DNA from: Arcobacter sp.
GTDB taxonomy: Bacteria > Campylobacterota > Campylobacteria > Campylobacterales > Arcobacteraceae
Assembly (NCBI GenBank): GCA_965662175.1
Contig: CBFIGT010000062.1
Coordinates: 1-13,883, forward strand
Length of the DNA: 13,883 nucleotides
Direction: 5' to 3'
Position numbers and translations under genes: made by a program. Below, piece after piece: positions 13,171-13,883 of this stretch (position 1 is its first letter; the number at the start of each line of letters is the position of its first letter). The notes beneath the pieces were generated by a model. It made no database searches. It saw only the letters and a program-made list of their open reading frames with translations, and was not told where the DNA came from.

Positions 13171-13583
13171 TGATAAAAACACCATTTTTAACAGTTGATG
13201 GAATAATAAAACTTTATGATAAAGATGAAAATTTCAAAGGAATAGTTTTAATAGATAGATTAAATAAACCTCTAGGCTATGCAATTCCAGGTGGTTTTGT
13301 AGATATTGGAGAAACTGTTGAAGAAGCAGTTATTAGAGAGATGAAAGAGGAAACATCTTTAGATATAGAGATTGAATCCCTACTTGGAGTTTATTCAGAC
13401 CCAAAAAGAGATGAAAGATTTCATACGGTTTCTATTGTATATGTTTGTAAAGCATATGGTGAAGCTATTGCCCAAGATGATGCAAAAGAGGTGTTTGTAT
13501 ATGAAAAAGATAAAATACCCTTAGATAAGTTAGTGTTTGACCATAAAAAAATAGTTTGTGATTTTTTGGAAAGTGATAAATAA
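13170..13583 (+). CDS. NUDIX hydrolase (ADP-ribose pyrophosphatase-like)
   Basis: Nudix box GGFVDIGETVEEAVIREMKEETSL; YSDPKRDERFH and FDH motifs. Confidence 0.93.
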   Translation: MIKTPFLTVDGIIKLYDKDENFKGIVLIDRLNKPLGYAIPGGFVDIGETVEEAVIREMKEETSLDIEIESLLGVYSDPKRDERFHTVSIVYVCKAYGEAIAQDDAKEVFVYEKDKIPLDKLVFDHKKIVCDFLESDK

Positions 13584-13585
13584 GC

Positions 13586-13667
13586 AAAAAAGGTTTAGAG
13601 TCAAAACGGAGGGGAGAATGAAAAAACTCTAAACCTAAATTTAACGAGATACGTTCAAAAATTGCTT
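13586..13667 (-). ncRNA. Candidate ~80-nt small regulatory RNA with C/U-rich anti-SD terminator loop
   Basis: Extended -10 TGTTATAAT (13681-13673); weak 5' hairpin (AACG-tatct-CGTT core); 11-bp stem AGGTTTAGAGT/ACTCTAAACCT (13636-13626, 13601-13591) with 24-nt loop UUUUUCAUUCUCCCCUCCGUUUUG and a U tail. Confidence 0.65.
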
Positions 13668-13806
13668 ACCAAATTATAACATTCTGATAAAAATTTGGAA
13701 TAGGATAACTGTATAAAAAATATACAATCGGTTTTTCTCTAAGTTTTATAGGTGAATTTTATAATTAAATAGTAATTAGTTAGATTAAAAAATATAAGAG
13801 TTAAAG

Positions 13807-13883
13807 TGGAGCGGGAGACGAGACTCGAACTCGCGACAATCTGCTTGGAAGGCAGAAGCTCTAGCCAACTGAGCTACTCCCGC
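13807..13883 (-). tRNA. tRNA-Gly (anticodon TCC)
   Basis: Reverse complement GCGGGAGTAGCTCAGTTGGCTAGAGCTTCTGCCTTCCAAGCAGATTGTCGCGAGTTCGAGTCTCGTCTCCCGCTCCA: 7-bp acceptor stem, anticodon loop CT-TCC-AA, GTTCGAG T loop, U73 discriminator, encoded CCA. Confidence 0.98.

Follow-up and report, generated by a model that had tools for sequence, protein, structure and literature searches.

The window analysed here is the entire 13,883-nt contig (C62) of a 2.6-Mb Arcobacter-like genome with 28% G+C, and its last few hundred nucleotides carry what is predicted to be the gene of a small non-coding RNA (sRNA) under nitrogen control. A NUDIX gene on the plus strand reaches its stop codon at position 13583. 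A tRNA-Gly(UCC) gene on the minus strand occupies 13807-13883 at the contig end, and the view of the upstream neighbourhood in the window genome ends with it. Between the two genes, an operator, an extended -10 element, a short non-coding stretch and a hairpin with a U tail follow one another on the minus strand. This arrangement forms a module that is kept in three species: the window genome (G000) and two relatives, G005 and G006. The coordinates of its parts are collected in Table 1.

The unit was first described in a sequence-only reading of the same DNA. Its extended -10 element (TGTTATAAT), its length of about 80 nt free of open reading frames (ORFs), its 11-bp stem, its 24-nt loop and its U tail can all be read on the minus strand as that reading had them. 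Transcription is predicted to begin at an A at 13667/13666, 6-7 nt past the -10 element, and the end of the RNA is placed at the U tail. No ORF of at least 20 amino acids fits within the unit. The arms AGGUUUAGAGU and ACUCUAAACCU form 11 Watson-Crick pairs, to which the minimum free energy (MFE) fold adds a closing U-G pair, giving 12. The loop UUUUUCAUUCUCCCCUCCGUUUUG measures 24 nt, or 22 nt once the U-G pair is counted, and is unpaired in both the MFE and the centroid folds. The small 5' hairpin of the earlier description fared less well. It is present in the MFE fold but has only 4 bp, and it is absent from G005 and G006; overall, conservation is low in the 5' third of the RNA. This hairpin is probably not essential.

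Table 1. Features of the predicted RNA gene and the operator sites of the window genome
Feature	Position	Strand	Basis
Operator TGTATA-N5-TATACA, 17-bp palindrome, centre about -52 from the predicted start	13710..13726	.	Motif counts and conservation
Extended -10 TGTTATAAT	13673..13681	-	Read directly in the sequence
Predicted non-coding transcript of about 82 nt	13586..13667	-	Start and end inferred, not measured
Small 5' hairpin AACG-UAUCU-CGUU	13643..13655	-	In the MFE fold; 4 bp
Terminator stem, 5' arm AGGUUUAGAGU on the RNA	13626..13636	-	MFE fold; compensatory changes in G005 and G006
C/U-rich loop of 24 nt, UUUUUCAUUCUCCCCUCCGUUUUG, with the anti-Shine-Dalgarno-like core AUUCUCC	13602..13625	-	Core conserved in three species
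Terminator stem, 3' arm ACUCUAAACCU on the RNA	13591..13601	-	MFE pair list
U tail of the intrinsic terminator, five free U	13586..13590	-	Read directly
Operator sites in the window genome	C12:2609, C16:8936, C18:7676, C32:2333/2494/5500/7619/13931/16659, C54:702/2489
Operator sites in the window genome, continued	C56:8210, window 13710, C104:5272, C140:5151, C157:3280

The fold is much more stable than base composition would give. The 89-nt RNA has an MFE of -20.9 kcal/mol, compared with -8.3 +/- 2.5 kcal/mol for 200 dinucleotide shuffles, none of which equalled it (z -5.0). The homologues in G005 and G006 adopt the same fold, with z scores of -3.9 and -4.2. A standard terminator scan admits loops of 3-8 nt only and misses the hairpin, the loop of 22-24 nt being outside the short-loop criterion for intrinsic terminators. 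A genome scan found 80 perfect-stem terminator-like hairpins, with loops of 3-9 nt in 66 and of at least 15 nt in 9. The large loop of the present hairpin is unusual, not unique. Further perfect-stem hairpins with T runs and loops of 18-27 nt lie in the window genome near 50339 on C2 and near 17250 on C29 (both plus strand), on C30 (minus strand) and on C148. The C148 hairpin is a repeated element, the same 38-nt hairpin occurring four times. These other large-loop hairpins could be further sRNAs or repeats.

The locus was searched for among relatives by several routes. BLAST against 60 relatives returned two long matches, in G005 and G006, which belong to the same genus. The three sequences were then used to build a covariance model, which was run on 151 family genomes and on all 8 genus genomes. 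The window RNA scored 80.9 bits, and its counterparts in the two relatives 81.7 and 93.2 bits. The remaining matches reached 31-43 bits, and those that were read (18 + 2) are ordinary terminators with 4-8-nt loops. The RNA module is present in three of the eight genus genomes and nowhere else among the genomes sampled. A search of a species-representative genome collection with the loop pattern gave 73 matches, of which only two Arcobacter records of metagenome-assembled genomes, corresponding to G005 and G006, are real; five loci were screened (2 Arcobacter, 3 other Campylobacterota), and for the remaining 68 the taxon name alone decided. All loci of the 35 matches in JGI metagenomes were screened, and none is real. 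The element is real but of narrow range. When positions 13300-13883 were searched on both strands with cmscan and Rfam 15 (E up to 10), only the tRNA-Gly passed its threshold; the weaker matches fell elsewhere or on the plus strand, none of them over the RNA on its own strand. A plus-strand match to Spd-sr07 reached 19.4 bits, compared with a gathering score of 55.

What is conserved within the module is its promoter, its pairing and its loop. The extended -10 is TGTTATAAT in the window genome and TGATATAAT in G005 and G006, with TGnTATAAT kept in all three. The terminator stem varies at several positions, and pairing is always kept. According to the MFE pair lists, and counting from the loop, pair four is G-C in the window genome and A-U in both relatives. 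The fifth is A-U in the window genome, U-A in G005 and G-C in G006, and two outer pairs exchange G-C and A-U between G005 and G006. The loop pattern UUUUUU-S-AUUCUCC...UUUUG is common to the three species. The loops of G005 and G006 contain an inner helix of 4 bp that leaves UCUCC as a pentaloop; a G-to-A change makes the U-G pair into U-A there, and the U tails are six to seven residues long (U6-U7). The sequence-only reading had put forward an independent sRNA gene, to be checked by an Rfam search and by covariation, and had left room for a loop without conservation. No Rfam family was found. Promoter, stem and loop recur in two more species, with compensatory changes in the stem and the core AUUCUCC intact in all three, which bears the proposal out. 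A loop held in sequence within a stem held by compensation is what would be expected of a pairing loop and goes beyond the needs of a plain terminator. With three close relatives, this pattern is suggestive, not statistical.

The hairpin might nonetheless be a mere terminator that stops read-through from tRNA-Gly here and from a histidine kinase gene in the relatives, perhaps also from the convergent NUDIX gene, its promoter-like and loop features being functionless. In its 11-12-bp G+C-containing stem followed by a U run, the RNA does resemble an ordinary intrinsic terminator. Having the arms and the U run, it may still terminate. In each of the three genomes it follows directly on a gene of the same strand, and no second terminator lies between them. 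Stem covariation is equally expected of a plain terminator, and -10-like hexamers are frequent at 28% G+C. However, a terminator needs no conserved loop of 22-24 nt, in place of the usual 3-8 nt, and most comparable hairpins of the genome have short ones (66 of 80 at 3-9 nt). Nor does this account explain a perfect extended -10 in three species, or a regulon operator exactly 31 nt upstream of it, which would give the hairpin a regulated promoter of its own. The U run after the stem is absent on the plus strand, so termination of the NUDIX transcript would be poor. We regard a terminator and nothing else as quite unlikely.

The operator ties the RNA to nitrogen metabolism. The palindrome TGTATAAAAAATATACA at 13710-13726 is intergenic and is one of 14 strict TGTATA-N5-TATACA sites in the genome, against 0.11 expected under a first-order Markov model. 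With one mismatch allowed, 16 sites are found against 0.83 expected, all 16 of them intergenic. The flanking genes include glutamine synthetase (glnA), two ammonium transporters (amtB), a urea-type binding protein (urtA-like, Peripla_BP_5), a GAF-sigma54 activator of the NifA type, cowN, a Gcw_chp porin and a double-Cache-CheW protein. A nitrate/nitrite locus is also flanked, with an MFS transporter of the nitrate/nitrite type, a molybdopterin reductase resembling Mo-nitrate reductase, a DmsBC-like protein, an FNT channel and nirB. G005 and G006 have 14 operator sites each, compared with 2 and 0 for a reversed control pattern. The sites of G006 precede three amtB genes (two of them followed by PII genes), glnA, a nifA-like gene, an FNT channel, nitrate reductase, an NrtA-like gene, cowN, a urtA-like gene and the RNA itself; the operator precedes the RNA in G005 as well. 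Beyond the RNA, the operator is the strongest conserved block of the locus, with one half-site reading TGTTTA in G005 and G006. Many short BLAST matches in other genomes, including many other genera of the family, coincide with it. Judged by its neighbours, TGTATA-N5-TATACA marks an apparently undescribed nitrogen regulon of environmental, nitrogen-fixing Arcobacter, and the RNA is a predicted member of it. In five other genomes of the genus, orphan operator-promoters were sought with a perfect TATAAT at a gap of 29-33 nt as the only criterion; all 11 strict matches precede ORFs, and no analogous sRNA was found.

Three further loci adjoin operators of this regulon. A protein of 287 amino acids is encoded divergently from amtB, behind the same operator and a perfect extended -10 (C54:1-633, minus strand; G006 1039626-1040489, L186:1583-2446). 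This member of the regulon has no Pfam or NCBIfam match, and by eye it looks like a membrane protein, with a soluble N-terminal part and, after it, several hydrophobic stretches. A nucleotidyltransferase/HepT-like pair of the MNT-HepT toxin-antitoxin type (C56:8285-8942, plus strand) diverges from the urtA-like gene and has a common operator region with it. An IS200-like (Y1 transposase) gene (C32:1697-2143, minus strand) lies on the margin of the nitrate-assimilation locus and adjoins two tandem operators upstream of the MFS transporter gene.

The distance between operator and -10 element is also shared across the regulon. In the window genome, 11 of 20 promoter directions have their best -10 hexamer 30-32 nt from the operator edge: those of glnA, amtB1, a divergent gene for a protein of 210 amino acids, the MFS, DmsBC-like, histidine kinase, nifA-like, porin, HAD and double-Cache genes, and the RNA. 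The gap of the RNA is 31 nt in the window genome, in G006 and, counted by hand, in G005. For the window genome and G006 together, a hexamer that agrees with TATAAT at five or more of six positions stands at a gap of 29-33 nt in 26 of 60 directions, with a peak at 31-32, compared with 4-17 directions in five control windows of equal width. The RNA promoter is, by its predicted architecture, a typical member of the operator regulon. With its centre near -52, the operator would lie one helical turn upstream of the classical position of a class II activator. The palindrome also has a plus-strand TATAAT 33 nt away (13727-13800), which points into tRNA-Gly antisense. The stretch 13710-13839 has a weak, sub-threshold Rfam match to the Helicobacter pylori antisense RNA HPnc0260 (27 bits, gathering score 59), probably by chance in AT-rich DNA.

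Genes near the operators were considered as sources of the control protein. In G002 and G007, a GntR/FCD regulator gene stands behind the same operator at the same spacing (L320:1580-2275 and L327), and G001 has a 71%-identical gene (L331). With that query, the GntR/FCD regulator was not found in the window genome, G005 or G006, nor in G004. An OmpR-type two-component pair in the nitrate locus sits behind an operator itself, a position that does not in itself point to binding of the site. Among the neighbours of nitrogen genes in G006 are PII, OmpR-type pairs and an AraC-type protein, with no clear regulator candidate.

If the promoter is real and nitrogen-controlled, its product could still work in cis. 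The hairpin would then be leaky, the transcript would act by antisense or polymerase collision against the convergent gene (NUDIX, or an HD-domain gene in G006), or the unit would be the leftover leader of a lost nitrogen gene. The convergent layout is kept, 3-22 nt separating the stop codon from the U tail, and a loop of 22-24 nt should weaken termination. G005 also has a same-strand gene just downstream, which encodes a DUF2780 protein starting MKKLL (L003:987-1448, minus strand); neither G006 nor the window genome has one. Yet the convergent gene varies, being NUDIX or HD_5, the DUF2780 gene has its own TGATATAAT promoter, and conservation is centred on the loop, which read-through does not require. 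On the other side of the module, the neighbour is tRNA-Gly in the window genome and a PAS histidine kinase gene in G005 and G006, which indicates that promoter and loop are not part of a conserved neighbouring gene. Either version of this reading, a product acting in cis or a leftover leader, is unlikely.

The sequence-only reading drew attention to the complement of the loop. In the window genome this complement does read GGAGGGGAGA-AUG-AAA-AAA, a Shine-Dalgarno (SD) sequence followed by a start codon and two lysine codons, and it also forms a four-codon frame, MKKL-stop, on the plus strand. The antisense match to such a start is not conserved. The C opposite the start codon is a G in the loops of both relatives, and the complement there reads AUC. 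The same change bears on the idea that the plus strand is the functional one, its loop displaying, towards the 3' end of the NUDIX mRNA, a strong SD and the mini-ORF (MKKL-stop). GGAGGGGAGAAUGAAAAAACUCUAA does stand in that loop, but AUG is ATC in the DNA of G005 and G006, the minus strand is the one to which promoter, operator spacing and U tail belong, and no gene follows on the plus strand. We give this idea hardly any credence. A plus-strand sponge for CsrA was considered and rejected, as the CsrA gene was not found.

We hold it somewhat better than an even bet that the RNA is a new, narrow-range, nitrogen-controlled sRNA in the style of RepG and CJnc190. A nitrogen-responsive DNA-binding protein on the operator would control its transcription. 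The RNA would accumulate under nitrogen limitation, since the genes of the regulon are of the sort that are switched on in known bacteria when fixed nitrogen runs short. The open loop would then serve as a seed and block translation initiation at SD sequences without Hfq, by analogy with RepG and CJnc190. Its conserved, unpaired core AUUCUCC, joined by CCUCC in the window genome, is complementary to sequences of the SD type. Neither an Hfq nor a CsrA gene was found in the three RNA-bearing genomes. Because the core is unpaired and SD-complementary, these two proteins were not found and a precedent exists in RepG and CJnc190, occlusion of the ribosome-binding site (RBS) by the loop is the likeliest mechanism. 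This style of action had already been suggested in the sequence-only reading and holds up, with C/U-rich loops documented in PMC8295292 and PMC8687705 and no Hfq gene found.

Several observations weigh against a nitrogen-controlled, base-pairing sRNA, and the first concern its promoter, its conservation and its expression. Hexamers resembling a -10 are frequent by chance in an AT-rich genome, as the control windows of the spacing analysis show. The control protein of the operator was not found, and activation or repression is inferred from position only. A loop of 22-24 nt is poorly suited to an intrinsic terminator. Only three sequences enter the comparison, their species are close relatives (median protein identity 81%), and the place is partly syntenic, with NUDIX downstream in both the window genome and G006. 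With few close homologues at such a place, part of the conservation reflects shared ancestry. Wastewater contigs X1 (13520-13836) and X3 span the locus at a depth of 3-6, as for its neighbours, and metatranscriptome X5 has no coverage of it; the wastewater contigs carry no information on strand, ends or level and support no inference on expression either way.

The target searches count on the same side. They used a home-made gene finder (longest ORFs with an SD score), so that errors in start positions weaken them, and hybrid energies without accessibility. Against 2660 predicted start regions, the loop gave a mean of -8.4 kcal/mol, and five shuffled loops gave -8.6 to -9.6 kcal/mol. Starts with ATGAAAAAA (74 genes) scored better, at -10.6 against -8.35, because of the U run, by construction. 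Any C/U-rich 25-mer resembles an ideal anti-start in the A/G-rich context of start regions. The mRNAs of the regulon are ordinary as targets, their start regions lying at the 15th-98th percentile, and no perfect complement of the loop exists elsewhere in the window genome. Between the window genome and G006, of which 2.4 of 2.66 Mb was covered in the orthologue tests, 1585 reciprocal-best orthologues were identified, and 1193 pairs with matching N-termini were scored. With a cut-off of -12, there were 45 joint strong pairings, and with one of -14 there were 12, compared with 25-82 and 4-17 in eight column-shuffled controls. This CopraRNA-like check, which the sequence-only reading had proposed, therefore showed no excess over shuffles. 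The idea in that reading that the loop represses many mRNAs of exported proteins found no support either, pairing with start regions being no better than for shuffles, in the genome or across orthologues. The top joint matches have mixed, unrelated functions, and several resemble mis-called internal starts. The RBS of a TRAP permease gene of G006 offers a perfect 12-mer to the G006 loop; this candidate was rejected, as its orthologues in the window genome and G005 do not co-vary with their own loops. Ten orthologue pairs retain GGAGAAU in the RBS, among them urtA-like, nirD-like, S6 (rpsF), L9 (rplI) and two TRAP/TAXI binding proteins. These pairs, of mixed functions, are leads only.

The same results bear on the possibility that the RNA targets the ribosome or a protein in place of specific mRNAs, its CCUCC/CUCC loop being a decoy of the 16S rRNA 3' end or the RNA a sponge for an RNA-binding protein. 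The core AUUCUCC, with CCUCC in the window genome, resembles the anti-SD sequence as generally known, and there is no statistical sign of specific targets. But this resemblance may be of little significance, since start regions are paired just as well by any other C/U-rich 25-mer. Neither CsrA nor Hfq was found as a protein to be sponged, and a single-copy sRNA would need very high levels relative to ribosomes. Such a role is very unlikely. A bolder version of sRNA action would have the loop mimic the anti-SD end of 16S rRNA under nitrogen starvation, occupy strong RBSs across the transcriptome, and throttle or re-rank initiation as a nitrogen-sparing brake, driven by an undescribed regulator at TGTATA-N5-TATACA. 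We mention it as a long shot of very slight probability. The preferred reading, that of a nitrogen-controlled sRNA in the style of RepG and CJnc190, is best judged beside the systems that it resembles.

RepG of H. pylori is close in design. PMC8295292 describes a C/U-rich terminator loop that binds a G-repeat leader. The RNA described here would likewise be a free-standing sRNA gene of the Campylobacterota that does without Hfq and uses a C/U-rich terminator loop to pair with purine-rich leaders, a pairing predicted in our case. The two differ in that the target of RepG is a G-repeat, whereas the loop complement here is the SD-like GGAGAAU. The window RNA also matches no Rfam family at E up to 10, a search that would include RepG only if Rfam has a model for it. 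We know of no report of nitrogen control of RepG. For CJnc190 of Campylobacter jejuni, PMC8687705 documents the mechanism that is predicted for the window RNA. CJnc190 is cut by RNase III from longer precursors and has an antisense antagonist, CJnc180, whereas the RNA here has a single promoter and terminator and no evident antisense partner. The Rfam search detected no homology between the two RNAs.

Other phyla have sRNAs in the nitrogen response. Those listed in a review (PMC9170634) include NsiR4 of cyanobacteria, sRNA154 and sRNA41 of Methanosarcina, and NfiS and NfiR of Pseudomonas stutzeri; nitrogen sRNAs are described there as acting on translation or mRNA stability, and the terms 'Campylobacter' and 'Epsilonproteobacteria' do not appear in its text. 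These sRNAs differ from the window RNA in being of unrelated lineage, under an unrelated operator and without sequence similarity to it. NsiR4 is reportedly driven by the nitrogen regulator NtcA, and sRNA41 is said, in the title of a study, to affect ribosome-binding sites. The NtcA sites, GTA-N8-TAC, differ from TGTATA-N5-TATACA, as do those of NrpR and NtrC.

Nitrogen control in the Campylobacterota is essentially undescribed, and a literature search over article listings and the openings of abstracts found nothing published on sRNAs or a nitrogen regulator of Arcobacter. The operator, with its fixed spacing to the -10 element, may matter more than the RNA, as it marks a regulon of glnA, amtB-glnK, nitrate, nitrite and urea uptake, nifA and cowN. 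Since the operator is sharply defined, both the nitrogen regulator and the regulon are directly testable. If confirmed, the RNA would give the phylum its first candidate for a nitrogen-regulated sRNA and, with RepG and CJnc190, the third case of Hfq-independent regulation by a C/U-rich loop. It would place a base-pairing sRNA with such a loop within a nitrogen regulon, as NsiR4 and sRNA154 are placed in other phyla.

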